Shown: positions 7,559-45,275 of the stretch, piece by piece
Position numbering within the stretch: the first letter of the stretch is position 1
How the letters are laid out: each line of letters starts with the position of its first letter
Origin: a virus
Lineage: Duplodnaviria; Caudoviricetes
Length of the DNA: 56,788 bases
Reading direction: 5' to 3' (one strand)
IMG/VR virus record: IMGVR_UViG_3300042868_005444
Coordinates: 1-56,788 of that record
Translations under genes and position numbers: made by a program
The notes under the pieces: generated by a model
Databases searched by the model: none
The model's input: the letters and a program-made list of their open reading frames with translations, nothing else
Told to the model about the DNA's origin: nothing

Positions 7559-9459
7559 CAGATGCTCCTGTTCGCGACTTCCAAGGCGTGTGCGATGTGG
7601 TTGTCAGACATGTCGAGGAGGCTTTCGGTCCCCTTGCTGATACCCTTCTTAGCACGTTCTGCGGCCATGACCAACTGATCTGCCATCTTGTCGTGCGGCA
7701 TGCCCACCCGACCACCGGACATGCGACCCTCGCGTTCGTCGACTGCTGCGCCCACCTGAGACGCCACGTTCGACACCGGCGCAGTGACGTAACCGCGCGC
7801 CCGGCTGATGGGATCGTTGATGGCCCGCTCCGCCCGGCCAAGAGCATACTGGCTGTACGCGCCGAGCTTAGGTGACGATGCCAGCGCGCCGGGGATTGCA
7901 GCGGCAGCGATGCCGGGGTGAGTAGCGCCAAAAGCAAGTGCAGCCAACGGGCCGCCGAGGCCAGCAATCGTCGAGTTCAGTCGCTCACCAAGGAGGTCGC
8001 TCATCGCGTCACCGGCAATGGAGTAGCGAAGGTTTTGGCCAGACGGTGTGCCTTCCAGCTTGGAGAACATCTCATTGCCGTACTTGCTGTTGAAAGCTCT
8101 TGCGACCTTCCTTGCTCTACCAGCGTCGGACATCATGGATGTGCCAAAGTCCTTGCGGACGTTGTTGAGCTGGTGCTTGTACTCCTGCCAGCCACGCATC
8201 ATGTCGCCATATGCTGGGTCCGTATCAGCCATGGAGTTCACAAGGCTTGCGGCCAGATCGTTGACGCGACCACGCAGGCTCGGGTCTTCGATCTGTTTCG
8301 TGAGCTTGTCGATGTTCTTCTTGACGACATCCAGCTCCTGAATGGTGCGACCTGTGTCTGACGGATGCGTCAAGGCGCTGTCGATCTGGAAGATGGCGTC
8401 GTTGGCCGCCTGAATATCAGACGGCTTATAAGTAACCGGTGCCCGAAGAACCGTGTTGGGGTTCAGCATGTTGTAAAGCGTTTCACGAGCTGCCGTCGGG
8501 GCAGTCATGTCGACCGGCTGAGAACGAGCAAAAGCTGTCGCCTGAGACGACATGTAGGCGTTGCTCGCCTCCTCGGCCATGTCGTCGATTGCCTTTTCCA
8601 GACCCTGAGCAACATCACCCGTGAAGTTTGGGTTACCCTTCAAAGCGGTCATGAAGGCGTCTACCTTTGCGGGGTCACCGCTCAGGCCGACCTCGCGAGC
8701 GATATTAAGCGTCTTGAGAGGCACACCGCTGGCCGCAGACTGGGCGGCCATCAAGGCGTATGGGGGAAGCTTTCCGACGGTGGTCGCTGCCTTACCAGTG
8801 AGGTTCAGCGCAGCCTGCACGGGGTCAAGGTTTGTAGCAACCCTGCTGATGGGACCAAGCTTGGAGGCTGAGCCCGCACCCAGAGAGGCCACACTTGCAA
8901 TGTCTGCTGCGTAAGACATAGGGTCTTCGGCAAGGCTCTTCCAGAATTGGCCCTCTTCGCCGCCGCCGTAGCGCTGCTTGTAATTGCCGATCAAGGCGTC
9001 GGCCATCATCTCGCGCTCAGCCTTAGCAGTCGGGTCGATGTCGTAGCCCATGGCTTCACCGGCAGCGCCGACAGCCTTAGAGCCAAGCCCGTAGCCGATC
9101 TCGCCGATGGTAGTGGCAGTGTCGATGGGGTTCATGACCGCGCCAGCAAAGCCCTCAAGAGCATTGTAGGTGCTTGGCCCGATGTTCTCCGCGACCCGTG
9201 GCAGGTACTCGCTCCACGGCATCTTGGCGTACTCGGCGGCGCTGATCTCGCCCTCAGGCATGCGACCTTGGCGAAGTCTTGTTGCGACATCCGCGCGGTT
9301 CATCATGGGCGCGGGAGCGGGAGGAGGTGGTGCCTCAGTGGTTGTCGGGGCGTTCGGGTCGGTCAGAACCCGATACTTGTCCGCGATGCTACCACCCCCT
9401 TGCGGGGATGGGGTTCTCTTTGCGAACTCGGATGCAGCACCCCAGTCAAGATCGGCCAT
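7558..9459 (-). CDS. putative internal virion (DNA ejection) protein
   Basis: ~633 aa Ala-rich helical protein with hydrophobic patches, directly after the SLT-bearing protein; C-terminal RMSGGRV motif. Confidence 0.6.
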   Translation of the reverse strand: MADLDWGAASEFAKRTPSPQGGGSIADKYRVLTDPNAPTTTEAPPPPAPAPMMNRADVATRLRQGRMPEGEISAAEYAKMPWSEYLPRVAENIGPSTYNALEGFAGAVMNPIDTATTIGEIGYGLGSKAVGAAGEAMGYDIDPTAKAEREMMADALIGNYKQRYGGGEEGQFWKSLAEDPMSYAADIASVASLGAGSASKLGPISRVATNLDPVQAALNLTGKAATTVGKLPPYALMAAQSAASGVPLKTLNIAREVGLSGDPAKVDAFMTALKGNPNFTGDVAQGLEKAIDDMAEEASNAYMSSQATAFARSQPVDMTAPTAARETLYNMLNPNTVLRAPVTYKPSDIQAANDAIFQIDSALTHPSDTGRTIQELDVVKKNIDKLTKQIEDPSLRGRVNDLAASLVNSMADTDPAYGDMMRGWQEYKHQLNNVRKDFGTSMMSDAGRARKVARAFNSKYGNEMFSKLEGTPSGQNLRYSIAGDAMSDLLGERLNSTIAGLGGPLAALAFGATHPGIAAAAIPGALASSPKLGAYSQYALGRAERAINDPISRARGYVTAPVSNVASQVGAAVDEREGRMSGGRVGMPHDKMADQLVMAAERAKKGISKGTESLLDMSDNHIAHALEVANRSI

Positions 9460-9460
9460 A

Positions 9461-12400
9461 TCACATTCCCCCAATAAAGTACCGGGCTAGGACCGGCGAG
9501 GTGTTTTCAGTGCCAAGCAGGGCAGACAACGCCATCTGCGCCTCTTCCTGAGACATTCTGCCAGAGTGGACGTCCGAAAGGAACTCCTTCACGAAGTCGC
9601 CCTTGGTCTTTCCGGTTTGGCCAACAGGCGTCGGATCGTCGGCCATCTTGAAGAGGTCCGTAAGGTTCGCTTTTTCCAGTTGGTGGAGTTGCGAGTATTC
9701 TTGGCCGAAGGCCGCATCCGCATTAACCAATGATCCACGACCGGTCGGCTGCTGCGACAGGTAGGCCGAATAGTAGTTGGCCCGGTCGATATCTTCTTGG
9801 TTGGCAAGCATGACCGATGCCGTGATGGCCGAGGCGGCATCCGGGGGCATGTTGAGGTCAGGGTAAACGGCGGAGACCTGTTGAAAGACGGACGCGGCGC
9901 GCTGTTGCTCAGGCGTCATGTCGCTCGCGCTAAGCGTGGCAAGTTTTTCCAATAGGGCACTCTGGGTCTCCGGAGACCCGAGGTCAGCCGTCCAGTTTTC
10001 TGGCAGGAACGTCACCAGAGGCTTAACGATGTTGTTGGCGTACCACTCGCCAGCCGTCCCCATGTTACCCTCGTTGATGGCGGAGCCGACGACGTAGGCC
10101 ATCTCGTTGACGTTCGGCTTGCCAGAGATTGCCGCCGAGCGCTCGGCGTTCACTGCCGGAAGGATTTGGCTGGTCTGCTTGACCGTCTCAAACCACTGTC
10201 CGGGCTGTGACCGCATCATCTCGCGGTCTCGAGCCAAAGCTTCTTGGGAAGCATCGCCCCACGCCACGTTCGATGGGATGCTTGGAGTGGCCGCTTCGCC
10301 GCCGGTCGGGACGCTTATAGTCCCGCTCAGATCAGGGCTGTTGAGGTCGAACCCGCTGCTCTGAGCAGACATGCCAACGCGGCGGATCATATCGTCAACC
10401 ATGCGTTCCCCGGTGGAGAGACGGCTGTTGTCGAGGAAATCCCAGAACGGAACAAGGCCGTTCTCGGTCATAATCATGTTTACACCATCGACAGGGAAGA
10501 TGCTTTCCTTCGCGGTCTGCATGGTGGTCTGGAGAGCCTGAGCATCGAGGCCACGGATGTCTGCAGCCTGCTTCTCAAGGCCAGCGTAGGTGTTTGCCGC
10601 GCCGCCGATACCCTGAATGATCGACGAGCCAAGGTAAAGAGACGGCGAGGAGGCCATGGTCCCGAGGCCAGACAGGATCGACAGCAAGGCGTTTTTGTTC
10701 ACCTTACCATCGTCATTGTAAAACATCTTGCCAAGGGCGTTGCGCTCTCCATACGGTTTTTCAGGCTTGAGACCAAGGCCACCGGCGTATTCCTCACCAG
10801 CCGACGCACCGCCAGCGTTACCTGCGACACCTCTGGATGCCGAGCCCATGCCAGTGACGGAGGCAACGTAGTTTTGCGTTTCCTCGGGAAGGTAATCAAG
10901 ATAGCTTCCGCCCATGGCTCCAGCGCGGTCAAGAGCACTGCGCAGACGACCCGGTCCAGCATTGTATGCTGCGGATGCGAGATCAAGGCTGCCGAAGCGG
11001 TCGTACATGTTCAAGAAGTATGCTTCACCAAGGGCAGCGTTGTAATCCGCGTCGGTGCGGAAGCGCTCTTCGTCCCACGGGAGGCCAGCCATTTTGGCCG
11101 CCTCAGGCCCAGTGGCAGGCATAACCTGACCGATGCCAATTGCGCCCGCAGACGACGTGAGCGGATTGCCGTTGCTGTCAAATTGCCTGCCGCCACTTTC
11201 CTGAGTGATGATCTTCGTACGATAGAACTCGGACGGATCAATTGCCGCAGGGCGCTCTTCCGGCTGTGCGGCGGGGACAAGACCCGGCTGGACAGTGGGT
11301 CTTACATCGGAGCGACCAATCGCAGCGGCGGCAAGACCGGCCAGATCGCCTGCCGGAATAGGTTCGCGGGTTGGCGTCGGGCTTACTTCCGCTGCGGGCG
11401 TCACCCGCGCATCCGGCAGGTCACCGAGGTTCATGGGTCTTGGCACGTCACCGGCCATCAGGCGGCGGCGGATGATCTCCTCTTCTGCCTCCGGCCCACC
11501 ACCCACTCGGTATCCCTGACGGACAACGCCGCCCTGATAGAATTTGTCAGCCTGACCATAGTCGACGCGCTTCATGCCGTCAGAGCCTGTCATCACGGCG
11601 TCAGGGTGCTTGCGCTCGACTTCATCGGCCATGAAGCCGATGTGCGTCTGCTCGCGATCATCACCCTTGTACTTAAACTTGTAGATCGGCATTCCGTCGT
11701 CGGTTTTCCCGATCCGGCGAATTTCATGCTTCATGCGGCGGTCGGACAAGGCGAACAGGTTTGCAACTGCCAAGGCGGTATTCGCCGCATTGCCAATCTT
11801 GCTCATGGTGCTTTCAGGCTGCCCCGGCGCGGAGCCCGGCTGCATGATCTGGTTCTTCTTGGCTTCCTCTTGGGACTTCACCGTATCGGAGAGATAGCCT
11901 TCCTTCTGCACGGGGTTCTCAGCGGGCTTGAGGCCGCCCTCAAGGTAGGCCGGGCCGCCGGAAGCGTAGCCAACGACGCCGCCGCGCGAGTTTTCGCTTT
12001 CACGGTTCTTCTGAAAAAGCTCCCAGAACTCGCCGCCTTTGCCGAACTTGTCCTTCAAGTCGATCATGCTGTTGCCGAAGTTGGCTGCCGCCTCCAGCTG
12101 CTGGGCTGCGGACATGCGGGCGTTTTCGAGGCCGGAACTGTCAGCAATCATCAGCTCACCAACCGGGAGGTAGGCCTGCGGGACATAGCCCCCAGCGCCC
12201 GGCTGAGAACCTACGCTTGAGCCGTATGGGCCAGCAACACCACCGCCACCGGCCTTGGTTGCGCGGTCGTAGTCGACCGACTTGTAGCCGGAAGGCTCAG
12301 TGTTCACGGCGTCAGGTTTAACTTTCTCAACCTCGTCGGCCATGAAGCCAACGTGGGTCTGCTCACTGTCGTCGCCCTTGTACTTGAAGCTGTAGATCGG

Positions 12401-13285
12401 CAGGCCATCGTCGGTCTTGCCGATGCGCTTGATGTCATGCTTCAGGCGGCGATCTGACCAGAAGGAGGTCGGCTGCGTGGTGGTCGTGGTCGATCCAGAC
12501 AGCGCGCCGGTGCCCATGGCGATGTTCGCGAGGAACTGCGCCACTTGGAACGGGTAGGCTTGCTGCTGTTGGAACTGGTTGTAGAGCGCGCTGAGGCCAG
12601 CCTGTTCGGTCTGCTGACCGAGGGTGCCCGCGTTGATCTGCGCTTCCGCACCCTGCAGGCCGAGGCCCTGAGCCATCTGGCCAAGACCAGCCATTTGCTG
12701 ACCACCAGACAGAAGGCGAGCAAGGTTGGCCTGCTCTGCACCAAGGTTCAGGCCCTGCTGTTGCTGAGCCGTCTGCAGCGCTTGTTGGTAATTCTGTGCG
12801 TTCAAACCAGCCAAGGTCGCGCCGGTGGCCATACCCTGCTGTTGGGCGAGGTTCGCCGCCGCAATACCGGCGCGGTCACCACCAAAGGCACCGCTTGAGA
12901 TCGCCGTGCCGAGCGCGCCAGACTGCGCCTGCTCTTGCTCCTGACGCATGCGGGCCATCGTCGCGTTGATGACGTCCTGCTGGTACGGGTTCATGTATTT
13001 GCTGATCTCAAGATCAGCGGGGTTTGCCGCAGCCATGCCGGAGCGCGTAGCGTCCGTGGCTTCACCGATGTACGGCTGGTAGGCTCCTGCAGCGGCGTTG
13101 ACGTTGCCGATGCCCATCTGCTGCTGTTGGTTCAGCTGGGCAACAAACTTTGAGGGATCAGTGGAGTAAATCTGGAACGGCGTCTGGGCGACACTTTGGG
13201 CCTGAGCGTTCACCGCATTATAGCGGTCAAGCACCTCCTGCGGGATTTGGACCTGTTGTGTCGTTGTTGAAGTCTTGCCGCCCAT
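9461..13285 (-). CDS. large internal virion/ejection protein with two peptidase S74-like domains and a lytic transglycosylase (SLT) domain
   Basis: Gln/Gly-rich N-terminus; SDRRLK...GFMADEVE...VDY twice; IITQESGG...GIGQVMPAT...YNAGPG...ETQNYV. Confidence 0.85.
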   Translation of the reverse strand: MGGKTSTTTQQVQIPQEVLDRYNAVNAQAQSVAQTPFQIYSTDPSKFVAQLNQQQQMGIGNVNAAAGAYQPYIGEATDATRSGMAAANPADLEISKYMNPYQQDVINATMARMRQEQEQAQSGALGTAISSGAFGGDRAGIAAANLAQQQGMATGATLAGLNAQNYQQALQTAQQQQGLNLGAEQANLARLLSGGQQMAGLGQMAQGLGLQGAEAQINAGTLGQQTEQAGLSALYNQFQQQQAYPFQVAQFLANIAMGTGALSGSTTTTTQPTSFWSDRRLKHDIKRIGKTDDGLPIYSFKYKGDDSEQTHVGFMADEVEKVKPDAVNTEPSGYKSVDYDRATKAGGGGVAGPYGSSVGSQPGAGGYVPQAYLPVGELMIADSSGLENARMSAAQQLEAAANFGNSMIDLKDKFGKGGEFWELFQKNRESENSRGGVVGYASGGPAYLEGGLKPAENPVQKEGYLSDTVKSQEEAKKNQIMQPGSAPGQPESTMSKIGNAANTALAVANLFALSDRRMKHEIRRIGKTDDGMPIYKFKYKGDDREQTHIGFMADEVERKHPDAVMTGSDGMKRVDYGQADKFYQGGVVRQGYRVGGGPEAEEEIIRRRLMAGDVPRPMNLGDLPDARVTPAAEVSPTPTREPIPAGDLAGLAAAAIGRSDVRPTVQPGLVPAAQPEERPAAIDPSEFYRTKIITQESGGRQFDSNGNPLTSSAGAIGIGQVMPATGPEAAKMAGLPWDEERFRTDADYNAALGEAYFLNMYDRFGSLDLASAAYNAGPGRLRSALDRAGAMGGSYLDYLPEETQNYVASVTGMGSASRGVAGNAGGASAGEEYAGGLGLKPEKPYGERNALGKMFYNDDGKVNKNALLSILSGLGTMASSPSLYLGSSIIQGIGGAANTYAGLEKQAADIRGLDAQALQTTMQTAKESIFPVDGVNMIMTENGLVPFWDFLDNSRLSTGERMVDDMIRRVGMSAQSSGFDLNSPDLSGTISVPTGGEAATPSIPSNVAWGDASQEALARDREMMRSQPGQWFETVKQTSQILPAVNAERSAAISGKPNVNEMAYVVGSAINEGNMGTAGEWYANNIVKPLVTFLPENWTADLGSPETQSALLEKLATLSASDMTPEQQRAASVFQQVSAVYPDLNMPPDAASAITASVMLANQEDIDRANYYSAYLSQQPTGRGSLVNADAAFGQEYSQLHQLEKANLTDLFKMADDPTPVGQTGKTKGDFVKEFLSDVHSGRMSQEEAQMALSALLGTENTSPVLARYFIGGM

Positions 13286-13779
13286 TAGGAGCCCCCTTCA
13301 GCCCCTTCATTGAGGCCAGTTTTTGCACCGTAGAGGAAGTATACACCAGCTGGTGAGCCAAATACACGCTCATAAAGCCGAATTTTTGCTTCCGTCCGAG
13401 AACTTGAAAGAACGCCAATCGCCAAGGGTATACTCAGTCTATCTGCCGTCATCTTCGCGAACTCAGCAAGCTTCCGCGCCCTGCCGCCTTTGGCGGAACG
13501 ATATTCAGGGTCAACGTAGATCGCCTTCTCCTCGAGGATCAGTTCCTTGCTGTACCACATTTCACCCATGCTGAGAAGGACTGCTCCTTCTAACTTGCCA
13601 CCGACGGGCCCAAGGACACCGCAGATGCCTGTTTGGCGGGTCAGCGCACCCCAAACAACCAGTGCAAGCTTCTCTACGTCGGGCGGAACAACCGCGTTCT
13701 CCTGTGTCGCCGCAAGGGCGAGGGCCATCATACCGTTGAAGTCTTCTTCCACACCGGTACGAACCTCGACGTCATCCAT
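13285..13779 (-). CDS. GNAT-fold (acetyltransferase-like) virion morphogenesis protein
   Basis: IYVDPEYRSAKGGRARKL motif-A-like segment and RLYER; position between nozzle and ejection genes. Confidence 0.7.
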   Translation of the reverse strand: MDDVEVRTGVEEDFNGMMALALAATQENAVVPPDVEKLALVVWGALTRQTGICGVLGPVGGKLEGAVLLSMGEMWYSKELILEEKAIYVDPEYRSAKGGRARKLAEFAKMTADRLSIPLAIGVLSSSRTEAKIRLYERVFGSPAGVYFLYGAKTGLNEGAEGGS

Positions 13780-13783
13780 CAGT

Positions 13784-14365: not shown

Positions 14366-14373
14366 GTCGTTCC

Positions 14374-16991: not shown

Positions 16992-16994
16992 CTC

Positions 16995-17744: not shown

Positions 17745-17776
17745 GTCTGCACCCCTCGAGTTTGGGCGATCTTACA

Positions 17777-30130: not shown

Positions 30131-31042
30131 TTACGAGGGGAACGAACCGAAGATCGAACGCCAGTTGTAGTAGCCGAACGAGTAACGCTCGTAGCCTTTG
30201 ACGAGGAGGTTATCCGTCACGAAATCGACTTGCATGTCGGTTTCGAACTTCACGCGCTCCATGTACGACAGGCCGTCGATGTTGGTCAGCAGGAACCAAG
30301 CGCCGGTCGAGGTCAAGAAGTCGTTGACCATGTAGCCTTCCGGCAAGCCGCCAGCGGTCGACATGATCGCGTTGACGTCGTTGTCGGCGGTGCCCGGACG
30401 CAGTTCCGTCTTGGTCAGGCGGATTGCGACGGGTTCCAGCTGCGGCGGAACGATCAGCTTACGACCGCGAGCGAACACCTTCAGGCCTGCCTGATCGCGG
30501 AAGTTGGACCGGATCGAGATCATGCCGTTCAGCAGGGTCGCTTCGTTCAGTTCAACGTCCGTGGTCGGGCGGTTTGCAACAGTGCCGCCGTCGATGGGGT
30601 GGCTGGTAGAGATCAGAGCCACGCCGTCACCACCGATTGCACCGTTGTAGGTGGTCGCGGTGTTCAGGACGTTTGCGCCGTAGATTTCCTTGGTCTGCTG
30701 GAAGCTCTCGATCAGACCGAGGTTCGACGGTGCGAACTGGGTTTTGTACAGGTTGTCGTCGACAGCTTTGCGAGTGATCGCGTAGCCCAAGCCGATTTCA
30801 ACGTGCTCTTGGTTGTAGATGAAGCGCTCACCGGCGTTGTTGTCGAACGCAGTTTGGCCACCTTCAGTCTTCAACTGCGCAAAGCCAAGGTAGCGCATCT
30901 CGGCAGTACGCTCGAGAGCCATCTTGGAATTGTGCTTCGTGAAGATTTTGTCGTACTGAGACGGGATCATCTCGTACTTGCCTTCAACGCCACGGAGGCC
31001 GGGGAGCAGAAGGTCTTTAATGGCAGAAAGATTAACAGCCAT
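30131..31042 (-). CDS. major capsid protein
   Basis: 303 aa; LLPGL...Y, KTEG, LGYAIT...DDNLY, GDGVAL..TSHP, KLIVPPQL, ERYSFG..NWR; strong codon bias; position after scaffold. Confidence 0.9.
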   Translation of the reverse strand: MAVNLSAIKDLLLPGLRGVEGKYEMIPSQYDKIFTKHNSKMALERTAEMRYLGFAQLKTEGGQTAFDNNAGERFIYNQEHVEIGLGYAITRKAVDDNLYKTQFAPSNLGLIESFQQTKEIYGANVLNTATTYNGAIGGDGVALISTSHPIDGGTVANRPTTDVELNEATLLNGMISIRSNFRDQAGLKVFARGRKLIVPPQLEPVAIRLTKTELRPGTADNDVNAIMSTAGGLPEGYMVNDFLTSTGAWFLLTNIDGLSYMERVKFETDMQVDFVTDNLLVKGYERYSFGYYNWRSIFGSFPS

Positions 31043-31054
31043 GTTTCATGCTCC

Positions 31055-31636
31055 TCAGATGCCGGTCAGCTGTTTGGTGCTGACGTTGTTGAAGGCCACG
31101 ATGACAAGGTTATAAGCCCCTGCCTCGGTGCCGGGTGCGCCGGGCGGATCAATGTCCAAGCTCACGATGCGGAAGGGCAGCGTGGCCGTGGTGTTGACCG
31201 TCGACATGTCGACAGATGCGCCGGAAATACCGCTTGCGGTGTTGCCGGTACCAATAGCGAAGTTCACGTTCGCATTGATGTCGGCAGCGGTTGCGCCGGT
31301 TGCGCCGGTCTGAGCGATGAAACGGGCGTTCGGATCGTTGACGATGTAACCCTCGACAGTCTGCGAGGAGGCAACATCCGAGCCGGGCCAGTAGTTCGAC
31401 CAGACGGTGCGCTTCTGCGCAACCGAGAGGTACTTACAGCCTTGGAAGACGCCAGCGATCTGGGTCGTGCCGGGAGCACCGACAACGACATATCCGTTGG
31501 CATCGGGAAGGACGGGGTCGCCATAGAAAATGGCGGAGGCATTATAGGCAATACGGACAGCGACTTGCTCGTAGGTCGGAGCTGAGCCATTGCCGCTGTA
31601 CTGCCGGAAACCGAAAGGCGCGGAGGTGTTCGCCAT
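31055..31636 (-). CDS. capsid cement/decoration-like protein
   Basis: MANTSAPFGFR...IFYGDPV...GVFQGCKY; immediately upstream of MCP; AGGAG RBS before ATG 31636. Confidence 0.75.
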   Translation of the reverse strand: MANTSAPFGFRQYSGNGSAPTYEQVAVRIAYNASAIFYGDPVLPDANGYVVVGAPGTTQIAGVFQGCKYLSVAQKRTVWSNYWPGSDVASSQTVEGYIVNDPNARFIAQTGATGATAADINANVNFAIGTGNTASGISGASVDMSTVNTTATLPFRIVSLDIDPPGAPGTEAGAYNLVIVAFNNVSTKQLTGI

Positions 31637-31639
31637 AAC

Positions 31640-31728
31640 GGGTATCTCCTTTGCAGGAGGTCCATCATCGCGCACCGGGGCGAGTGTAGAACCGGGGGTT
31701 TCAATCTCCCGCACCGGGGGGAGAGTGG
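31640..31728 (-). promoter_or_regulatory. structured 5' leader of capsid operon with two identical-loop hairpins and an RBS-sequestering hairpin
   Basis: UCUCCC-CCCGGUGC-GGGAGA (31724-31705), UCGC-CCCGGUGC-GCGA (31683-31668), CUCCU-GCAA-AGGAG (31659-31646). Confidence 0.6.
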
Positions 31729-31732
31729 CCGT

Positions 31733-31761
31733 ATAGTGTCACGTCACGCCTCGATTGTCAA
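31733..31761 (-). promoter_or_regulatory. sigma70-type promoter for capsid operon
   Basis: TTGACA (31761-31756) - 17 bp - CACTAT (31738-31733). Confidence 0.65.
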
Positions 31762-31781
31762 AGGCAAGAAAAAACCTGCCC

Positions 31782-32009
31782 TCACTCGAACTTCGAGCAG
31801 GCAATGGCCAATTTCGCATCAAAGGGGACACCGCGCGTTTTTGTGTGGACGAACACCAGCTTGCACTGGTCCCTCAAGGGTGATGAATGCTTCGGCCTTG
31901 AGTGACCACCGCACCACTTGCAGTCGATGCACTTCTTCCCGAGATCAGGGTTTGCCCAAGTCAACTGACCCGGAACGGTCATTTTCATTCTCTCGGCGAG
32001 GTCCGTCAT
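31782..32009 (-). CDS. small Cys-rich (Zn-binding) protein
   Basis: KCIDCKWC...C...ACSKF; start uncertain. Confidence 0.55.
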   Translation of the reverse strand: MTDLAERMKMTVPGQLTWANPDLGKKCIDCKWCGGHSRPKHSSPLRDQCKLVFVHTKTRGVPFDAKLAIACSKFE

Positions 32010-32145
32010 CGGCCACCCCATTCATAAATGTTGAAACGTACGGCTCAAGACTGTCCCAAGCATCTTGAACGGCGGGAGTTCCCTCCCGCCGTATCGCTTT
32101 TCTCAACCTGTCGATCTTGTTGTAGATCGTGACGGCGCGGATCAT
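31945..32145 (-). CDS. hypothetical protein
   Basis: ATGA overlap with upstream stop; 66 aa. Confidence 0.5.
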   Translation of the reverse strand: MIRAVTIYNKIDRLRKAIRREGTPAVQDAWDSLEPYVSTFMNGVADDGPRRENENDRSGSVDLGKP

Positions 32146-32672
32146 GCTTCAGGGATGGGCATCGCCTCGTAGCCCTTCTTGATCTTCGCCATTTCGTTGC
32201 CCTTGTTGGAGCGTTCGAACTGACCAGCCGGGGTTGCAGAGAGCTGTTCTTCCTTGGCACGGACCTGCAGGCGGGCTCGGCGAAGCTCAAGTTGGCGAAC
32301 CTCGTCCGTGATCTCTGCGGGGCGCTCCATGAGAACCATCCCCTTGCGGGTGATCTCGAGTTCTTTGTAGCCAGCTGGCATCATCTCAGGGTGCCGTGAG
32401 GCAGGCACAGGTTCCCAGCCATCACGCGCCAGCTTGACTTGGTGGGCCGGGTCTTCCGCCCCGAGGATAGTCTTGGTCTTCCACTCGTAGGTCCAGCCGT
32501 CAGGGATGACGCCGGGCTCAACGAAGAACTCGTCAGTGCCGTCGTCCAAGCTGCCGTCGCGGTGAGCACGATGCTCTGCGGCCTTACGGGCAGCCCTTTC
32601 GCGGGGGCTTTCTTCAGCCACGGATGCTTCGGGACGCATCGCGGGGCGCACACGCTCAAATTTATCGCTCAT
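32142..32672 (-). CDS. conserved head-module protein
   Basis: IPDGWTYEWK...GWEPV...HPE...GMVLMERP; between scaffold and capsid genes. Confidence 0.75.
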   Translation of the reverse strand: MSDKFERVRPAMRPEASVAEESPRERAARKAAEHRAHRDGSLDDGTDEFFVEPGVIPDGWTYEWKTKTILGAEDPAHQVKLARDGWEPVPASRHPEMMPAGYKELEITRKGMVLMERPAEITDEVRQLELRRARLQVRAKEEQLSATPAGQFERSNKGNEMAKIKKGYEAMPIPEA

Positions 32673-33532
32673 TGCAGCTTACCTTCCTTCTGGAGTGCGA
32701 TCTTGTTCTTGGCATAATCGTCGTGCTTCATGCCCATCATGTCGGCCATTTCACGCTCCGCAGCCGTCAATCGTACGACGTTCGTGCGGTTCGATCCACC
32801 ACGGCTGACGGGCGCAGCGGCGGGCGCTGCATCGCGGCGAGACACGACCTTGGCCGCAGACGAAGAGGCTTCCTCGTCAACGGATGAAGCAACCCTTCTG
32901 CCGACGTTCAGGGTCTGCTCGATTGCCGAGAAGTACCCATCGGTGTCAGGAGCGTGGCCGTCAGCGACCGCCAGCTCGTGTGCCGCGATCATCTTGCGGT
33001 TCAGGCGGCTGTCCTTAACAAACTCTGGGTGGGCGCGAACCCAGTCTGCCGAACGAGGCGTCAGGCGGGCAGCGAAGGCCTCCACGGGATCAGCCGACTG
33101 CGGAGGCAGAGGTTGTACCTTGGGCTTGGCCTTCATTGCCTCAAGGCCGTTGGTCAGCTGCTGCAGCTGCGTTGCGGCCTCGTTGATCTCGTCGTTGATG
33201 CTGGCGGCCCGCTCGAACTCACCGGCACGGAGAGCCTGAGCGTAGTTGGCCCTTAGGATTTCCTTGTCGCGGTTGAGCGTCTGGATCGCGTTGGTCACCA
33301 GATGGATTTCGCTCTCGTCCTTGTCGATGCGCGCCGACCGCTCACGCTCTTCGGCATCGCGGGCCATGCGCTCTGCGGCCTCACGGCGCGACCGTTCGGC
33401 CTCAAGTTGGCGCTGGAGATCGGCAATGCCGTCTTCGGGCTTTACGATTTTGACCTCTTCAGCCGCCTCATCGGGCTGCTCTTCGGTCTCTACCGTGATT
33501 TCCAGATCGTCTTGGTCTTCAATGTCGGACAT
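32669..33532 (-). CDS. putative capsid scaffolding protein
   Basis: Acidic N-terminus, long coiled coil, W...HPEF, C-terminal VRLTAAEREMA..MGM...YAK; start MSDIED after AAGGAG. Confidence 0.75.
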   Translation of the reverse strand: MSDIEDQDDLEITVETEEQPDEAAEEVKIVKPEDGIADLQRQLEAERSRREAAERMARDAEERERSARIDKDESEIHLVTNAIQTLNRDKEILRANYAQALRAGEFERAASINDEINEAATQLQQLTNGLEAMKAKPKVQPLPPQSADPVEAFAARLTPRSADWVRAHPEFVKDSRLNRKMIAAHELAVADGHAPDTDGYFSAIEQTLNVGRRVASSVDEEASSSAAKVVSRRDAAPAAAPVSRGGSNRTNVVRLTAAEREMADMMGMKHDDYAKNKIALQKEGKLQ

Positions 33533-33543
33533 GAATTGTCTCC

Positions 33544-33933
33544 TTACCAGACTGCGTCGGGGTGCGGAACGCGGCCCCTGATGTTGATGTCGTCGAAGAT
33601 GCGGCACAAGACGCCGTTCACGGTGATGGACCAGCCGTCGGACGGGCGGAATACCAGCCAGTCGTGGTCTTTGAAGTCGACGCCGGAGAACCAGTTGCCG
33701 TCCTGCTCGAAGGCCTGCGGGCCGGTTTTCACAAGGAGGCCGACCTTCGACTGGAAGCGGTCCTCGTCGGTGTGTTTGTCCGTCAGATACAGACCTGATT
33801 TCGTCTTCTGCGGGCGGATGTAGACCGCCAGAAGGACTTGGTTGTGGAACAGCTCAATCTCGGAGAGGTCGCCCAAGTCCTCGAGGAGTTTGTTCTTGGG
33901 GTCTTCGTCGTGGCTCATCATCATGTGCGGCAT
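33544..33933 (-). CDS. GroES/Cpn10-like co-chaperonin
   Basis: VLL...KTKSGLYL (mobile loop)...GLLVKTGP...DWLVF...G..CRIFDDINI. Confidence 0.8.
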   Translation of the reverse strand: MPHMMMSHDEDPKNKLLEDLGDLSEIELFHNQVLLAVYIRPQKTKSGLYLTDKHTDEDRFQSKVGLLVKTGPQAFEQDGNWFSGVDFKDHDWLVFRPSDGWSITVNGVLCRIFDDINIRGRVPHPDAVW

Positions 33934-34203: not shown

Positions 34204-34214
34204 CCGAGGACCGA

Positions 34215-35468: not shown

Positions 35469-35484
35469 TGCGTTCTCCTCGAGG

Positions 35485-38196: not shown

Positions 38197-38236
38197 GGAT
38201 GGCCCCCTGTACGTTGCCGGGGAGCATATCAGATCA

Positions 38237-40009: not shown

Positions 40010-42960
40010 TTGATCGCTCCGCCATTGGCTCGATAGATGTTGGGGTCTTCCGGGTCAAAGCTCGCCGCGTCCTTGTGTTTGATCGCGGTCGGCTTGAAGA
40101 CGACGATCTCGGAGACGCCATTTCGACCCTTGCGGATTACGCCATCATGGCCATTGGCCAAGGCCGAATTTGTAAACTGATCGACCTCATGCGGCTTCAG
40201 GTTGTCCCAAGCGTTCATTTTGTCGGCACCCGTCATGACGCCAAAGTCCTGAAGCTTTCGCATTGTGCCGTGAGCTTTTTCTGGGGAGGATACATCCCAG
40301 ATAAAAGGGTTCTTCAAGGCGGCATGAAGGGGGCCCATGACCGATCCGTCGCCGCGATCCTCCTTATCGGCATAATACTCTGCATCACCCTTACGGGCCG
40401 TCAGATAGTGGCCGCGACCGTAAAAGCCGGGATCGCGTTGACCCAGCTTCTCGTCCTTAAACTCGCTGAACCCTTCGCTGGGCGTACCGTGCCAGAGCTC
40501 CAAAGGCTTGCCCTGCTCGTCCTGCAGGTCTTCGTGGATACCCTCGAACATGGCGGCACCGCCAGCGGCGAACGCGCCACGCGGCAGTCGCGGCAGGTCG
40601 GCTGTGCCAGCGGCGTCGTTGATGGCCTTGACCTCTTCGTCCGGCAGGACACGGTTGACTTTCATGTTGCCGCCAATCAGCCAGTTGCCGGTCATGTTCG
40701 GGTTGGTCTTGTAGCGATAGAACCCGCCCAGCGGGACTTGATCGGTAATGTGAGCCTTCACACCCTTACCACGGCTGTCAGCCACCGACTGCCAGTCCTT
40801 GTCGGCTGCCATCTCGACCTCGGCCCAGACGTGGTTGTCGGGCCGGTAATCGGGTTTCTTCAGGCTCGGGTCGGACTTGCCACCGATGTGGGTCGCCATA
40901 GGCAGATCACCAGCATGCCATCCGGGTCGGTATGCCAGATCGCCGAGCTTGGACTTGACCTTGCCCTGCGACTTGCCCTGCGGACCCTCTTCGGCCTCAA
41001 GCCACTCACCCATCGGGACGGGCTTGTCGGCGTTGACGAACAGCGGGTAGAGATTGCCATCACCCTTGGTGCGGAACAGCTTGTAGGCCTTCACGGTCTT
41101 CTGCGGGACGCTCACCTCGCCGCCCTCTGCCTTCGTAATGTCAGGGTCGGCGGGGTCGAACTTTGTGGCCGACAGGGCGCTCTTCACCTGCTCGGGCTTG
41201 AACGCGACATATTCTTTCGTCCCGTCACCCCTGTCAGCAATAATTCCGTCGAACCCAGAGTTGCGGATGGTGTCGTGAAGCTCGTGATGGCCCCACTGGT
41301 TGACCATCGTGCCGTGAGGTGTGTCGCTCAGGAAGACGTCACGCATGGTGGCCGTGCCGTCGTCCAGCTTCTTCATGACAGCCCGCGCCTGTTCGCGCTC
41401 ATTCTGCGGGAGATTGTACTTGTTGAAGACGTTTTTGATGTAATCGACCCACGCCGGGTGTCTCAGAACGTCATCGGTAAACGGCTGCTTCATGCTAACA
41501 TGCAGCTTCATGACCTGCCCGTACGGCCTGACCTCGGGCTGGTCAGCGCGGATGCCCTGCGCGTAACCGCTCGCCGTCTTCGGGCTGTCGCTCAGGTAGA
41601 TGCCGGGCCCGTAGTTACCATACTGAGATGGCTTGAACGCGCGGAAGTCTTGACCAGCGATGTTGCGGTCAGTGGCCTCTTGGTCCACCTCAGAGGTCCA
41701 CTTTCCGTCGCCCTGATAGTTTTGTTTTTCGACAATCTTGGGTGCGTTGCCGTGATACAGCTCGTCGGGCACGTCCGGGTGGTTGCCCTTCATAAATTCG
41801 ACAGCGCCCCCACGGGCCTTCACGGCGCGCAGGTCGCCCATCTTCTGGTAGCCAGCGGCCCTGACGCCGTCGAGGTACGCGGTTCCCTCTTGGAACCCGT
41901 CCACACCCTCTTTGCCGGTCTGATACCGCAGCATCGGGATGTACTGCTTGCCCTCGTGCTCGATGATCGTAGGATCAGTGCCCATCCGCTCAAAGCTGCG
42001 CAGGGCCATGGTGGTGGGCTTCCACGCCTGCATGTATCGCCCGGTGATACGCATGGGGTGCGCGCTGCCCTGCAGGGTATCGCCGACCTCGTAGCCGTCG
42101 AACACACCGGCGTCGACCGCCTTCTGGTGCGCTTCCATGGCGTGGGTCATCCGGGTGTGAATGTCGTCCATCACGCCGGTGTGGAACGTCTGCAGCTGCT
42201 TCTGTTCGCGCGCCTGACCCAGATCGGCAACCTCACCACCATCCGCATAGCCGTAACGCTGCGATGCCCAGCCCTGCGCCCAGTCGGGGATGCTGTCGCG
42301 GCTGTGAGACGGGCCCCATGCGCGCTCGCCGCCGACGTCGAAGTGCATGTTGTTGTCGTAGAAGCCGAAGCCCCGAAACCCTGCGTTCCATGCTGCGTCT
42401 GCGAGGGCCAGCTTGTCCTCTGGCGACCAGCCGGTGGTGTTCACATCATAGGCGTTGCCGTGGGTGTGCTGGCTGTCCTTGGCTCCGCCGACACGCTCGT
42501 TGTGCTCAGGGTCGCGGTACGCGCTGACGATGCCGAAGTCCTGCCCACCCCAGCCCTTGCGCAGTGCTTCCATCGCGGCGGTGGCCTCGGGCGTTAGGCC
42601 CTCCGCTTTCGCTTCAACGCGATCCGCGTGGGGCTTGGGCTCTTCTCCCTTCTTGGGATACACCAGATCGGCAATGCCGGTGGCGGAGTTGCCGATGCTG
42701 GCGAGGCTGCCGAGGGCGTCAAGGAGGCCCGGCTGGCGCTGGGCTGGCAATGCACCGGCGACCGCGAGGCGACCAACCGGCAGGGCTGCGGCTGGAACAT
42801 AGCCGCCGTTGGCATGCACCTGACGCGGGACGTTGGGAAGATACTTGGACGGTGCGATCTGGCCTTCGGCCCGTTCAACGGCGGTCTTGGCCCGGCGCTT
42901 CTCGAGAATGCCACCCAGTGTCAGCTTGGCGGCCCGGATGGCTTTCTCGTGATCCATCAT
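40006..42960 (-). CDS. modular (polyvalent-type) protein: peptidase M15 + unknown + ART-like + unknown + ART-like
   Basis: SAYRDPEHNERVGGAKDSQH..GNAYD...HFD; LYHG...GPGIYLS...GFDGI...EYVAFKPEQVKS; LWHGT...GRGHYLT...GHDGV...EIVVFKP; six GG motifs at domain borders. Confidence 0.8.
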   Translation of the reverse strand: MMDHEKAIRAAKLTLGGILEKRRAKTAVERAEGQIAPSKYLPNVPRQVHANGGYVPAAALPVGRLAVAGALPAQRQPGLLDALGSLASIGNSATGIADLVYPKKGEEPKPHADRVEAKAEGLTPEATAAMEALRKGWGGQDFGIVSAYRDPEHNERVGGAKDSQHTHGNAYDVNTTGWSPEDKLALADAAWNAGFRGFGFYDNNMHFDVGGERAWGPSHSRDSIPDWAQGWASQRYGYADGGEVADLGQAREQKQLQTFHTGVMDDIHTRMTHAMEAHQKAVDAGVFDGYEVGDTLQGSAHPMRITGRYMQAWKPTTMALRSFERMGTDPTIIEHEGKQYIPMLRYQTGKEGVDGFQEGTAYLDGVRAAGYQKMGDLRAVKARGGAVEFMKGNHPDVPDELYHGNAPKIVEKQNYQGDGKWTSEVDQEATDRNIAGQDFRAFKPSQYGNYGPGIYLSDSPKTASGYAQGIRADQPEVRPYGQVMKLHVSMKQPFTDDVLRHPAWVDYIKNVFNKYNLPQNEREQARAVMKKLDDGTATMRDVFLSDTPHGTMVNQWGHHELHDTIRNSGFDGIIADRGDGTKEYVAFKPEQVKSALSATKFDPADPDITKAEGGEVSVPQKTVKAYKLFRTKGDGNLYPLFVNADKPVPMGEWLEAEEGPQGKSQGKVKSKLGDLAYRPGWHAGDLPMATHIGGKSDPSLKKPDYRPDNHVWAEVEMAADKDWQSVADSRGKGVKAHITDQVPLGGFYRYKTNPNMTGNWLIGGNMKVNRVLPDEEVKAINDAAGTADLPRLPRGAFAAGGAAMFEGIHEDLQDEQGKPLELWHGTPSEGFSEFKDEKLGQRDPGFYGRGHYLTARKGDAEYYADKEDRGDGSVMGPLHAALKNPFIWDVSSPEKAHGTMRKLQDFGVMTGADKMNAWDNLKPHEVDQFTNSALANGHDGVIRKGRNGVSEIVVFKPTAIKHKDAASFDPEDPNIYRANGGAIK

Positions 42961-45275
42961 TCTTCCCTTTTCTTAGCGTTGACCTGCATGGCCAGCTTCA
43001 GGATATCAGATTTATGGTCGAACATCCGCATGTCGCGCTCGTGCTGCATCTTGACTGCGTCGTTCATGCGGTCGCGGTCCATGTCCATCTGCTTTGCCTG
43101 CAGGTCTTTCTCACGGTCTAGATCGCGGTTCTCGTCGTTCATCGCGTCACGGCGGATCGAGTGCTCGATCTGCTTGGCCCGGTTCTCCTCGGCCATCATC
43201 TTCAGCTGCAGCTCAGCCGGATCGGGACCAACCGCCCCGCCTTGCGCACGGGCGACCTCGGGTTTTTGAGCCTTCAGCATGTCAGCCTGCGCCCGCAGCG
43301 TGTCGGCGTCGGCCTTCTGCTTGGCGATCTTGATCTCCTCGATGCCCTTGAGGAGCTCCGGCGGCGGCTGGTTGCGATCCTGCTCGGGCTTGAGGAACTG
43401 CTCGGGGTTCGACCAGCCGATGGCGCGCAGGGCGGCCTTGTCAACGGCCACGGCGTCGTACAGACCCGGACTTGCCGACTGCAGCTGCTTCAGAGCCATG
43501 ATCTTCATGACGCGCTGGGCGTGGCTGGCGGTGTTCGGGTCGGCCTGAGGCACCAGTTCGACGTCGTCCAGAGCCTTTATGAGAAGCTCGATGTTCCACT
43601 CTACAGACGGCTTGCGGTTGCGCTCCCAGAAGCTTTCGGGGTGCTCGCGGAAACAATCGCGCAGGAGGGCGAACTCTTCGGCCTGAGCCGAGTGCATCCG
43701 CTTGTGGACCGAGTTGAGAACCTTGGTGGCCTGCTCGATCATGGCCAGCGTGGTGCCAACCGGCGCATCTGCCCGACCTTCGCCGACCTGCAGCTCAGAC
43801 GTACCGCCGACGCGCATGCCGGTGCTTGCGATGTTTTCGGTCAGGGCCATCAGAGCCTGCGACGGCTCTTTGTACGGCAGTGCCATAATGGCTTGGTTGA
43901 TCGGCTGGCCACCGGTCTTCACCTGAGCCGCGCCGCCGGGCGGGATGCGGAAGATGTTGGTGTTCTGGCGCGATCCGGTGTCCGAGATCAGGAAGCCGGG
44001 GAAGTTGGCGAACATACCAGCGTCCAGAAGCTCACGCCACGCAGCGGTGACCGCGTTCGTAGTGTTGCCGAGAATGTGCAGCAGGCCGATGTCGTAGAAG
44101 CCAAAGCCCGGCACGAAAGTGTACTTGACGAAGGTTTTGCGGGCCTCGGGCAGCTCTGCGGTGTCTTCGTTGTAGTTCCGTACGATGCTCAAAATCTCAC
44201 GCGACGACACGTCGATGGTCACGCGGTACGGGATTTCCAGACCGGACGGCTTGCCCTTGAACTTGTGCTCAAAGCCCTTGATGTCCAGCTCGCAATAGAC
44301 CTCGTAGATTTCGCGGTCGCGGTCGTCCGGGTTCATGGTATCGGTGGAGATACCCTGCTGCGCGGCCTTGGCTTCCTGAACGCTGTCGGGGCTGGTGATG
44401 AGCGGGGTCGCCAGCTCGATGTCGCGGTAGACACCGAGGATTTGCAGGCGCTTCACGGTCGACGGCTTGAGGTAGACGCGGTGCGTCACCCGGCGGGAGT
44501 TGGACAGGTCGGTGGCCGCGTTGTTGACGATCAGGTCGTCCGCGTTGACGCTCTCGGACACCGGGCGGTTCCGCAGCGGGCAGAAGTACACCTTCTTGAA
44601 CGACGTGCCGCCGAACCCCAGCAAAAGGAACATGCGGTCTGTATCCGGGTAATATTCTGTCGCGGTGGACGTCAGGTAGTGGTTGAAGTCCTTCTCGAAA
44701 GCGTCGGCCATCTGGTCTCGGGCGGCGGAGCTTGCGTTGCCGTCGTCCCTGATCTTCACCGGTCCGTCGGTCGGCAGCATCTCGGAGCGGGCGTTGGCTT
44801 GGAAGCGCAGCACGGCTTCCTGCAAGAGCGGGTGGCGAACCTTCGACATGCCTTCGACCGGCGCACCGTCGTTGCTACCCTGAATGCCGGGCAGCTCGAT
44901 CTTGAGACCCAGAAGCTTCATACCCTGCGCCCGATCCTCGACCCACTCCTTGCGGCTCATGAGGTCATCGCTGATCCCGCGCAGAAGGTCTTCGGAGATG
45001 TGGCCCAGCTCCATGCTGTCGATGTCGTCGACAAGGTTGCGGAACCAGCGGGTGTCCTTCTCCTCCTCGTTCTCAGAGATCGGCTTGCCATCCAGCGAGA
45101 TGGTGATCGAACCGTCACCGTGCTCGATGCTCAGGAGCGAGCCGTCATCCGAAAACTGGGGGACATCGACGTCCTCATCGGTGTTCTCGACCGTGACGTC
45201 CATTGCAGTGATTGCAGCGTCTTCAGGGTCATGTTCAAGGCGTACGGCGGGGTTCAGGCCGGGAACGAGAGGCAT
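42957..45275 (-). CDS. portal protein
   Basis: 772 aa; HPLLQEAVLRFQA.A..E..P..GPVK, GTSFKKVY, FYDIGL.H, APVGTTLA..E; downstream of terminase. Confidence 0.9.
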   Translation of the reverse strand: MPLVPGLNPAVRLEHDPEDAAITAMDVTVENTDEDVDVPQFSDDGSLLSIEHGDGSITISLDGKPISENEEEKDTRWFRNLVDDIDSMELGHISEDLLRGISDDLMSRKEWVEDRAQGMKLLGLKIELPGIQGSNDGAPVEGMSKVRHPLLQEAVLRFQANARSEMLPTDGPVKIRDDGNASSAARDQMADAFEKDFNHYLTSTATEYYPDTDRMFLLLGFGGTSFKKVYFCPLRNRPVSESVNADDLIVNNAATDLSNSRRVTHRVYLKPSTVKRLQILGVYRDIELATPLITSPDSVQEAKAAQQGISTDTMNPDDRDREIYEVYCELDIKGFEHKFKGKPSGLEIPYRVTIDVSSREILSIVRNYNEDTAELPEARKTFVKYTFVPGFGFYDIGLLHILGNTTNAVTAAWRELLDAGMFANFPGFLISDTGSRQNTNIFRIPPGGAAQVKTGGQPINQAIMALPYKEPSQALMALTENIASTGMRVGGTSELQVGEGRADAPVGTTLAMIEQATKVLNSVHKRMHSAQAEEFALLRDCFREHPESFWERNRKPSVEWNIELLIKALDDVELVPQADPNTASHAQRVMKIMALKQLQSASPGLYDAVAVDKAALRAIGWSNPEQFLKPEQDRNQPPPELLKGIEEIKIAKQKADADTLRAQADMLKAQKPEVARAQGGAVGPDPAELQLKMMAEENRAKQIEHSIRRDAMNDENRDLDREKDLQAKQMDMDRDRMNDAVKMQHERDMRMFDHKSDILKLAMQVNAKKREE

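Follow-up and report, generated by a model that had tools for sequence, protein, structure and literature searches.

The IMG/VR record IMGVR_UViG_3300042868_005444, all 56,788 bases of which were analyzed (the window), is the complete genome of a podophage-like virus that has an SU10-type portal and adaptor and belongs to a large uncultured lineage. A short motif centered on Gly-Gly recurs in its virion proteins. The evidence supports the view that selection maintains this motif as a junction between enzyme modules that can be separated, in virion proteins that are internal and probably ejected. Seven proteins are built on a two-part grammar: three polyvalent cargo proteins (PV1, PV2, and PV3), one Lys-rich protein, and three proteins of an internal-core-type cluster (Table 1). 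In this grammar the linear motif lies in disordered linkers at the C-terminal edges of modules, and one amphipathic helix is terminal in most of the polypeptides. Gene position and domain content indicate that these proteins are probably internal or ejected.

The pattern [FYRKHM]..GG.[VIA] gave 22 copies in eight proteins, namely, the seven above and the portal. Every copy listed in an earlier note on this DNA was present, and the 28 to 30 copies or so claimed there are reached by adding looser look-alikes. The pattern used in that note gave 21 copies in the eight proteins, compared with 2.42 ± 1.53 expected from 2,000 per-protein shuffles, none of which reached 21 (maximum of 9); both the pattern and the protein grouping behind this enrichment over shuffled sequence were chosen post hoc. 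The remaining 33 open reading frames (ORFs) had 3 copies against 2.84 expected, this control set including at least one wrongly called ORF (385-1080, minus strand) that overlaps the true SprT-like gene on the plus strand. The look-alikes already recognized in the primase and in TerL were present, in line with chance expectation, and GG dipeptides as such were slightly overrepresented in the eight proteins (80 observed versus 61 expected). Since the test was post hoc and one ORF was miscalled, more weight was put on independent sequences from relatives.

These sequences came from 29 related metagenomic loci with DNA downstream of the portal, in which the pattern recurred in the proteins encoded after the portal and in the Lys-rich protein and almost never in the genes after them. 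Its density was 13.8 per 1,000 amino acids (aa) in 24 related Lys-rich proteins (168 copies in 12,155 aa) and 2.8 per 1,000 aa in the polyvalent proteins (150 copies in 52,959 aa, a set that still contained six misassigned ORFs of locus L047, later removed). In the GroES-like, scaffold, and capsid genes of the related loci it was 0.08 per 1,000 aa (1 copy in 11,979 aa). A logo made from 155 polyvalent and 148 Lys-rich copies extended the motif to about 11 residues. Position -4 is P or G, position -3 is R, position 0 is taken by K, Y, F, R, or H, and position 1 by A (55%) or K, after which come a free position 2, the two glycines, any residue, and then V (63%), A, or I. The consensus may be written (P-R-x-x)-[K/Y/F/R/H]-[A/K]-x-G-G-x-[V/A/I]. 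Copies were separated by a median of 188 aa in polyvalent proteins and of 49.5 aa in Lys-rich proteins, and among 26 ART modules of 18 to 89% identity the motif glycines accounted for two of the five nearly invariant columns. Variation of the Gly-Gly codons followed codon usage; any two of the 22 copies shared an exact run of at most 12 nucleotides (nt), the median being 6 nt. As judged from these sequences, selection acts on the motif at the protein level. The earlier observation holds and now reaches thousands of proteins.

The 633-aa protein of the internal-core cluster carries a single copy. A HMMER search of 1.84 billion representatives returned 974 matches to it at E values of ≤0.001, and the motif was present in 137 of the 148 full-length representatives, at 27 to 53% identity. 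Its distance from the C-terminus had a median of 54 aa and a 10th-to-90th percentile range of 53 to 56 aa. Only five columns of the 148-row alignment (23 to 51% identity) were invariant, G483, G582, G583, D619, and L626; G582 and G583 are the motif glycines, and D619 and L626 lie in the C-terminal helix. After the motif, the window protein has about 47 aa that form a conserved two-helix hairpin at the C-terminus, ending HIAHALEVANRSI. One RKxGGRV was found in the homolog of each of the six relatives that have the internal-core cluster, and no motif was found in the fibers of these six. The fold had no match in the PDB at an E value of ≤0.001.

The second signal is a short terminal amphipathic helix of the KA-L-x-L-T type (K-A-[LIM]-x-[LIV]-[TSA]), as in the C-terminal sequence VERALAVTRRK; the C-terminus of the 633-aa family reads ...KALEVANRSI. 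The helix pattern, which like the enrichment test was chosen post hoc, was found at a terminus of 49 of 58 polyvalent proteins, compared with 0.83 expected (200 shuffles; maximum of 4). It was found in 1 of 55 downstream head proteins and in 2 of 25 Lys-rich proteins, the N-termini of which bear a related basic helix. The last motif lay within 50 aa of the C-terminus in 26 of the 45 motif-bearing polyvalent proteins (7.1 expected), and the usual end of a protein was a module, a GG motif, and a short helix.

The position of the motif relative to module borders was examined in the same 58 polyvalent proteins, which had architectures of two to seven modules. Their 1,030 distinct internal BLAST block ends lay within 5 aa of a motif in 16.5% of cases (3.7% at random) and within 10 aa in 26.4% (7.2% at random). 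Cutting at the motifs produced 181 segments in 60 clusters, and between phages these segments were reordered, duplicated, fused, or free-standing. The ART module was present in one to three copies per protein, and the InPase module was C-terminal, N-terminal (loci L044 and L048), or a free-standing gene (L008 and L031), with modules c6 and c8 likewise either fused or free. Domain swapping at the motif between related phages, which the earlier note had put forward as a check, was thus found, and its picture of enzymes strung together agrees with the variable orders in which the modules are joined. In an AlphaFold2 model of PV1 aa 604 to 984 (26 rows), the ART domain had a predicted local distance difference test (pLDDT) score of about 90, and all three motifs fell in segments of pLDDT of <50 (fragment residues 1 to 13, 182 to 199, and 375 to 381). 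The model of the 633-aa protein (148 rows; mean pLDDT of 80.7) had a helical body, a stretch of pLDDT of <50 at aa 559 to 586 that included the motif, and, after this disordered stretch, confident helices at aa 589 to 615 and 619 to 632. All four motifs in the two models were therefore in low-scoring segments beside confident domains. The earlier statement that each copy falls between two domains or at a terminus held wherever it could be tested, that is, at the edges of Pfam and PHROG matches, at BLAST block ends, and in the two models. For the Lys-rich protein a domain border has no meaning, since this protein is probably disordered.

PV1 consists of an N-terminal helix, a motif, an M15 peptidase, a motif, a module without assignment, a motif, an ART-PolyVal domain, and a motif in its first half, followed by a phrog_30118 module, a motif, a second ART-PolyVal domain, and a last motif with only a Lys before the stop codon. 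The six copies are at aa 49, 238, 381, 610, 797, and 977, and the N-terminal anchor helix (EKAIRAAKLTL) is at aa 5 to 17. The matches were to Peptidase_M15_3 at aa 120 to 206 (E value of 1.2e-14), to ART-PolyVal in two stretches, one of them at aa 814 to 963 (E value of 2.3e-39), and to phrog_30118 at aa 623 to 791. Right after the first motif and before the M15 domain, aa 56 to 100 form a hydrophobic Ala/Gly/Leu-rich stretch (PAAALPVGRLAVAGALPA...LLDALGSLASIGNSATGIADLV) that could be a membrane-active segment. PV2 ends with its motif and the tail helix DAALALTRRFTKR; it had no Pfam or PHROG match, and an Atlas search returned viral hypothetical clusters only. Its module is a separate gene in the window and in three relatives and lies inside longer polyvalent proteins in 12 others. 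In PV3 the motif FNTGGAV (aa 722 to 728) stands immediately before the InPase domain (Pfam, aa 734 to 870; E value of 8.3e-49), and the PHROG matches of this region include "minor head protein" and "virion structural protein."

The Lys-rich protein has six strict and four or five loose copies, of which the first (FKTGGKV) and the last (RKDGGKV) are conserved throughout the family. This family has at least 2,959 homologs, all annotated as hypothetical and none with a Pfam domain, and 119 of the 120 best homologs have at least three motifs (median of 6). A conserved stretch of about 44 aa (aa 252 to 295) matched the 50-position family phrog_16028 (E value of 4.5e-21), and the protein also has a Pro/Met-rich PMPMP region. 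The portal was assigned by matches to Pfam SU10_portal (E value of 2.8e-11) and phrog_1216; its copy of the motif is weakly conserved, with a motif at the same place in 4 of the 29 related loci.

Besides the 633-aa protein, two members of the internal-core cluster carry the motif. The 193-aa protein has a C-terminal helix and a duplicated G-[SE]-Y-V-I-P-x-D element; five of its six homologs keep one to three motifs (that of L095 has none), and all six keep the same C-terminus. Its N-terminus matched the small family phrog_2423 (E value of 2e-13). The duplicated element faintly resembles GEFVFTKEA of the lambda gpH C-terminus (BLASTP E value of 0.07 in one comparison). The 193-aa protein was rejected as a homolog of a tape-measure C-terminus, the gpH match being nonsignificant and neither the T5 pb2 C-terminus nor Pfam Tape_meas_lam_C giving a match. 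The 1,274-aa protein is laid out as an ejection N-domain, an S74 domain, the motifs KAGGGGV and YASGGPA, a second S74 domain, FYQGGVV, an SLT domain, and a C-terminal region. Pfam placed Peptidase_S74 in two stretches (best at aa 277 to 327) and SLT at aa 690 to 790, and the PHROG matches were phrog_6121 and phrog_4287. The homologs in six relatives keep one to three motifs. S74 domains usually self-cleave at the C-termini of tail fibers, and an ordinary C-terminal S74 domain was present in the tail fiber encoded at 23814-25772. In the 1,274-aa protein the two S74 intramolecular-chaperone domains (aa 277 to 327 and about 505 to 571) are internal, each opens with SDRR[LM]KH, and a GG motif follows each of them, ahead of the SLT domain.

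Table 1. Features of the 56,788-base window, in order of position; the last four rows have no exact coordinates
Feature	Position (nt)	Strand	Motif copies (nt) and remarks
SprT-like zincin metallopeptidase (HEMTH)	298..1032	+	Only free-standing protease-like gene; Pfam E value of 3.7e-8; HExxH at aa 120
All-helical internal protein, 633 aa	7558..9459	-	RMSGGRV 7705-7725, single motif
Internal virion/ejection polyprotein, 1,274 aa	9461..13285	-	KAGGGGV 12236-12256, YASGGPA 11948-11968, FYQGGVV 11522-11542
GNAT-like acetyltransferase	13285-13779	-	Inside internal-core cluster; weak Pfam and PHROG matches
Small internal-core-cluster protein, 193 aa	13784..14365	-	MKRGGGI 14225-14245, RAAGGEV 13961-13981
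Protein with PG_binding_1 domain; staphylococcal-nuclease homolog	17777-18631; 18642-19049	-	Among structural genes
Motif-free head genes	30131..33933	-	Internal controls
Major capsid protein	30131-31042	-	
176-aa and 219-aa proteins	Within 30131..33933	-	
Coiled-coil scaffold-like protein	32669-33532	-	
GroES-like protein	33544-33933	-	Between Lys-rich and scaffold-like genes; Pfam Cpn10 E value of 1.8e-5, phrog_3188
Lys-rich, Gly/Ala/Pro-rich protein, 417 aa	34215..35468	-	From Met25 of 441-aa ORF; isoelectric point of 10.1
Polyvalent cargo protein PV3, 903 aa	35485..38196	-	AKNGGRI (loose), YADGGSI 37258-37278, FNTGGAV 36013-36033; helices at N- and C-terminus
Cargo protein PV2, 590 aa	38237..40009	-	FKRGGSV 38279-38299; module c1
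Polyvalent cargo protein PV1, 984 aa	40006..42960	-	HANGGYV 42796-42816, YADGGEV 42229-42249, KARGGAV 41800-41820, KAEGGEV 41113-41133, FAAGGAA 40552-40572, RANGGAI 40012-40032
Portal, 772 aa	42957..45275	-	RAQGGAV 43230-43250, in C-terminal tail
Small and large terminase	48.6-47.0 kb		
SU10-type adaptor and fibers			Among late genes
758-aa virion protein			Among late genes; PHROG
Internal-core-type cluster			113-aa, 193-aa, GNAT-like 164-aa, 1,274-aa, and 633-aa proteins

Polyvalent proteins were described by Iyer, Burroughs, Anand, de Souza, and Aravind in 2017 as multidomain proteins encoded beside virion genes, with domains such as ART-PolyVal, InPase, and peptidoglycan hydrolases, thought to be delivered together with the DNA and predicted to be processed into individual units; in the article text, metallopeptidases of the zincin class acting in cis were proposed as the processors (PMC5512222). 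The article text, supplements aside, contains neither "glycine" nor "linker" (PMC5512222). By their sequences, the cargo proteins of the window are members of this class, since its signature domains are present: several effector domains, including ART-PolyVal, InPase, and Peptidase_M15_3, are found in these proteins. Their genes lie directly after the portal on the late strand, a position that would be consistent with packaging and delivery. An in-cis zincin, which is common but not obligatory in the class, was not among their domains. The junction motif and the terminal helix set them apart from two polyvalent proteins of other lineages: the 3,125-aa protein of Limnohabitans phage DC33 had no copy of the motif despite 21 GG dipeptides, and the 1,203-aa protein of Roseobacter phage CRP-212 had none despite 13. 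Caulobacter phage RW and Pelagibacter phage HTVC027P, which have the same portal/GroES/scaffold/capsid module, showed no comparable motif pattern. Since other polyvalent proteins lack it, the motif is restricted to this clade and is no general trait of polyvalent proteins. No printed description of it was found in the literature searched, which took in neither supplements nor most subscription journals; searches for pentapeptides (FATGG and others) returned primer strings only, and no text retrieved on Gly-Gly, prohead proteases, and internal or ejected proteins contained "Gly-Gly." The motif grammar is new.

Next, we considered what the motif may do. We hold it to be quite possible, if a little short of probable, that it is a protein-cleavage site in this phage. 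The terminal helix would anchor the polypeptide to the assembling particle, and proteolysis at the GG motif, in the head or once ejected, would release the anchor and part the modules from one another. In this way, several enzymes (M15, ART-PolyVal, InPase, SLT, and modules without assignment) could be shipped as a single chain and act individually, and basic peptides would arise from the Lys-rich protein. Such a posttranslational separation of fusions would agree with the apparently free interchange between fused and split forms. With no prohead protease recognizable in the phage, the cutting would fall to a host protease or an unrecognized activity.

Cleavage of the lambda tape-measure protein gpH has been known since 1974. 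It removes about 14 kDa from the Gly-rich C-terminal region of gpH, and both the site and the catalyst are reported as unknown (PMC12617516). This region holds KFHFATGGFT (aa 733) and RGYATGGYV (aa 778), bearing out the statement in the earlier note on [FY]ATGG motifs there, and a cut before A734 would give 12.5 kDa. The T5 protein pb2 is cut as the tail assembles; the cut follows R1127 and separates a hydrophobic stretch from the C-terminal part (PMC10038345). This site was mapped only in 2023. The 92-residue C-terminal fragment stays in the tail as a helical plug; the catalyst is reported as unknown here as well, and no phage tail protease is known (PMC10038345, PMC12617516). The T5 record reads ...NSFVPR(1127)/AEGGMMYPG... 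at the cut (slash), a motif-like sequence. In both phages, an ejected protein has [R/F/Y]-A-x-G-G near a split-off C-terminal segment that stays behind as a helical anchor or plug, and the 633-aa protein of the window similarly has RMSGGRV upstream of its two-helix tail. It would be the podophage counterpart, with a body, the motif, and a helical tail that stays bound while the body is freed. However, the T5 and lambda proteins are tail-tube proteins with one or two copies, whereas in the present capsid cargo every module is followed by a copy; outside the motif no homology was detected; and the lambda cut site is unmapped. T5 also differs in being cut before Ala, whereas natural gene splits in the present lineage leave the motif on the upstream piece. 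P22 gp7, another ejection protein, is trimmed by host OpdA to a mature N-terminus of Lys-Gly-Gly-Lys-Gly (PMC8402733), and its sequence at the cut is ...SYPE/KGGKGG... (E20/K). P22 is thus likewise a podophage without a prohead protease in which a host enzyme trims an ejection protein beside Gly-Gly, but the one site in gp7 is N-terminal and departs somewhat from the pattern.

We also compared systems in which a viral protease does the cutting. The prohead-protease sites are L/I-x-E for T4 gp21 and A/S/G-x-E in phiKZ and SPN3US, and the T4 core proteins are chopped to small peptides. In T4 and phiKZ, a single short consensus is repeated across scaffold-like, internal, and ejected proteins, and cutting at it removes targeting peptides. 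The motif here likewise recurs, with a distribution that would suit such a site; the differences from T4, HK97, and phiKZ are that no prohead protease is recognizable here and that the recurrent site is based on GG rather than x-E. The adenovirus protease and pS273R of African swine fever virus (ASFV) cut core polyproteins and basic DNA-associated proteins at x-x-G-G-x. Both are viruses of eukaryotes that encode a cysteine protease of clan CE, and the P4 residue of their sites is hydrophobic, where Ala or Lys is found here. No Pfam match to a clan-CE protease (Peptidase_C5, C63, C48, or C57) was obtained among the ORFs scanned, and position 1 of the motif is A or K, not M, L, or I, so the analogy to adenovirus and ASFV drawn in the earlier note found no support. 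The part of its interpretation on separable modules that are strung together was supported, and cleavage and prohead loading by the motif are candidate functions. The system appears to work most like internal-protein maturation of the T4/phiKZ type and tape-measure processing of the T5/lambda type.

To identify a possible cutter, about 60 ORFs of 100 aa or longer were compared with Pfam and PHROGs. No prohead protease (S78, U35, U9, S80, or ClpP-like) was recognizable among them, in agreement with the earlier note, and the sole trace of one was a nonsignificant match of the scaffold-like protein to the C-terminus of Mu gpI (E value of 0.39). Double-glycine leader peptides were rejected, the motifs being internal or C-terminal and no C39 domain or transporter being found in the genome ORFs scanned. 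None of the eight motif proteins has HExxH, and Pfam gave nothing for the MPTase family; in-cis zincin processing was rejected as not applicable here, since no virion protein has HExxH. The SprT-like protein is a weak candidate for the processing enzyme. As a universal protease it was rejected, its gene being present in three of five complete motif-bearing relatives and absent from a sixth complete relative and from two partial ones. It lies on the strand opposite the late genes, and its homolog in the metagenomic phage MW202675.1 (84% identity) shares a strand with the small terminase gene and immediately precedes it, suggesting that this region is inverted or rearranged in the window. M15 was also rejected as a universal processing protease, its cluster being present in about 10 of the 29 loci. 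Locus L067 has no polyvalent protein and keeps a motif-rich Lys-rich protein.

Several points weigh against cleavage. No protease is shared by all the motif-bearing genomes, M15 modules being missing from many loci. Several proteins end with the motif and one to seven further residues (...RANGGAIK-stop in PV1), where a cut would be pointless. Where genes are naturally split, the upstream module retains the entire motif as its C-terminus, an arrangement more readily explained by a C-terminal tag or by a cut behind the motif than by one before Ala as in T5; the scissile bond, if there is one, may therefore differ from that of T5. P22 gp7 matches the pattern only loosely, and OpdA is known to act only on short peptides, which makes an interdomain site in a 1,000-aa protein an improbable target. 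The T5 and lambda sites resemble the motif over only five to seven residues. Finally, among the phage-collection records, relatives of the 633-aa or 590-aa protein over most of their length were encoded only in metagenomic MW202675.1. The broadest form of the proposal is that one Gly-Gly code, [basic/aromatic]-[A/K]-x-G-G-x-[V], is common to T5 pb2, lambda gpH, and the ejected cargo of this lineage. It would be read by a host protease or an unrecognized activity rather than by a prohead protease of the phage, and with one terminal helix it would allow polyproteins of arbitrary anti-host enzymes to be loaded on one signal and released as units. This broad form we consider rather unlikely.

The same C-terminal placement is what a docking tag would show. 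The motif might be a noncleaved "sticker" that attaches to some conserved component of the particle, be it the scaffold, the portal, the inside of the capsid, or the Lys-rich protein. The last would then be a multivalent glue that gathers cargo into the prohead; the cargo-loading peptide of encapsulins and the repeat motifs of CsoS2 in carboxysomes are analogs. We regard this serious rival as possible but doubtful. It would account for motifs kept at extreme C-termini, for gene splits that leave the motif on the upstream module, and for the lack of a dedicated protease. The Lys-rich protein is universal in the clade and has the most copies (6 to 10), and the capsid protein is unusually conserved (83 to 91% identity in L047, L056, and L067, where the portals have 64 to 66%); both points speak for it. 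However, there is no candidate receptor, and a complex prediction with the capsid protein, the scaffold-like protein, and the last 50 aa of the 590-aa protein (best score of 0.07 against a mark of 0.32) weighs neither way. Moreover, the motif is found in the T5 and lambda tape-measure proteins, which are never near the inside of a capsid, and T5 is cut at it. Loading would require no more than a single tag on each polypeptide, but nearly every module is followed by the motif, and the separate terminal helix already resembles a per-polypeptide signal.

A purely structural role, in which the Gly-Gly is a flexible joint that lets modules unfold and pass the portal and nozzle one by one with neither cleavage nor docking, seems improbable. 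The predicted disordered linkers between modules are where such a hinge would be placed, and the motif is limited to proteins expected to exit through the tail (the polyvalent proteins, the SLT-bearing internal protein, and the T5 and lambda tape-measure proteins). However, a sequence of 11 residues in which GG is invariant, position 0 basic or aromatic, position 1 A or K, and position 6 V is more than a hinge requires, as is a fixed distance of 53 to 56 aa from the C-terminus across 137 homologs, and the giant polyvalent proteins of other podophages do without it (0 copies in 3,125 aa and 0 in 1,203 aa). Mimicry of a chaperonin-binding loop is very improbable. A K-x-x-G-G-I-V sequence like the GroES mobile loop would recruit host GroEL to hold or fold the cargo, and the pattern does pick out the GroES genes of Caulobacter phage RW (KTKGGII) and Pelagibacter phage HTVC027P (KTKGGLI), with a GroES-like gene located two genes after that of the Lys-rich protein in the window. 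GroEL binds a hydrophobic triplet of the GroES mobile loop, but the motif has a single hydrophobic residue after GG and no such triplet; the loop of the window's own GroES-like protein is KSGLYL, without GG, and phages RW and HTVC027P have the GroES gene and not the motif grammar. That the motif is a by-product of chance, of Gly/Lys-rich composition, or of a DNA-level recombination scar, as the richness of these proteins in Gly and their modest excess of GG dipeptides might suggest, deserves almost no credence and is effectively refuted by the composition-preserving shuffles (0 of 2,000 reaching the observed count), by the densities and the lack of the motif in neighboring genes, by the absence of a common nucleotide sequence among copies, and by the invariance of GG across distant 633-aa homologs.

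If the cleavage reading is true, the motif would be the first sequence rule for dividing polyvalent phage effectors into working units and would account for the free fusing, splitting, and swapping of modules. If a Gly-Gly code is indeed shared, it would explain the unidentified catalyst and unmapped cut site of lambda gpH. The motif points to a concrete test on two textbook phages, T5 and lambda, in which cleavage is directly testable. The motif and terminal helix could be used as search handles for injected phage proteins in metagenomes, and if they are loading or release signals, they could provide parts for packaging foreign proteins into phage heads. Should the motif not be cleaved, its conservation would still be unusual for a short linear motif, and thousands of proteins carry it in a group of freshwater phages that is abundant and uncultured.

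The window is the whole record for this genome, and nearly all its late genes are on the minus strand. A related portal was encoded on at least 597 IMG/VR contigs, and the closest GenBank record was that of MW202675.1 (L001 in our locus set), with 81% identity across 65% of the region from 30 to 46 kb. A search for a cultured member of the clade found none. Cultured phages, among them Pelagibacter phages HTVC027P and HTVC023P, Roseobacter phages CRP-901 and CRP-902, and Caulobacter phage RW, had only the portal in common, at a distant identity of about 30%. A GroES-like gene is annotated at the same place as in the window in Caulobacter phage RW and Pelagibacter phage HTVC027P. Some labels in the records used look unreliable. 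In MW202675.1, the InPase polyvalent protein is labeled "type I restriction enzyme," the Lys-rich protein "yenB," the scaffold-like protein "endopeptidase clp ATP-binding subunit C," and the isolate "Myoviridae sp." The record of Limnohabitans phage DC33, PQ492659.1 (L101), has Inoviridae in its taxonomy line, yet it is 39 kb long and encodes the 3,125-aa protein.

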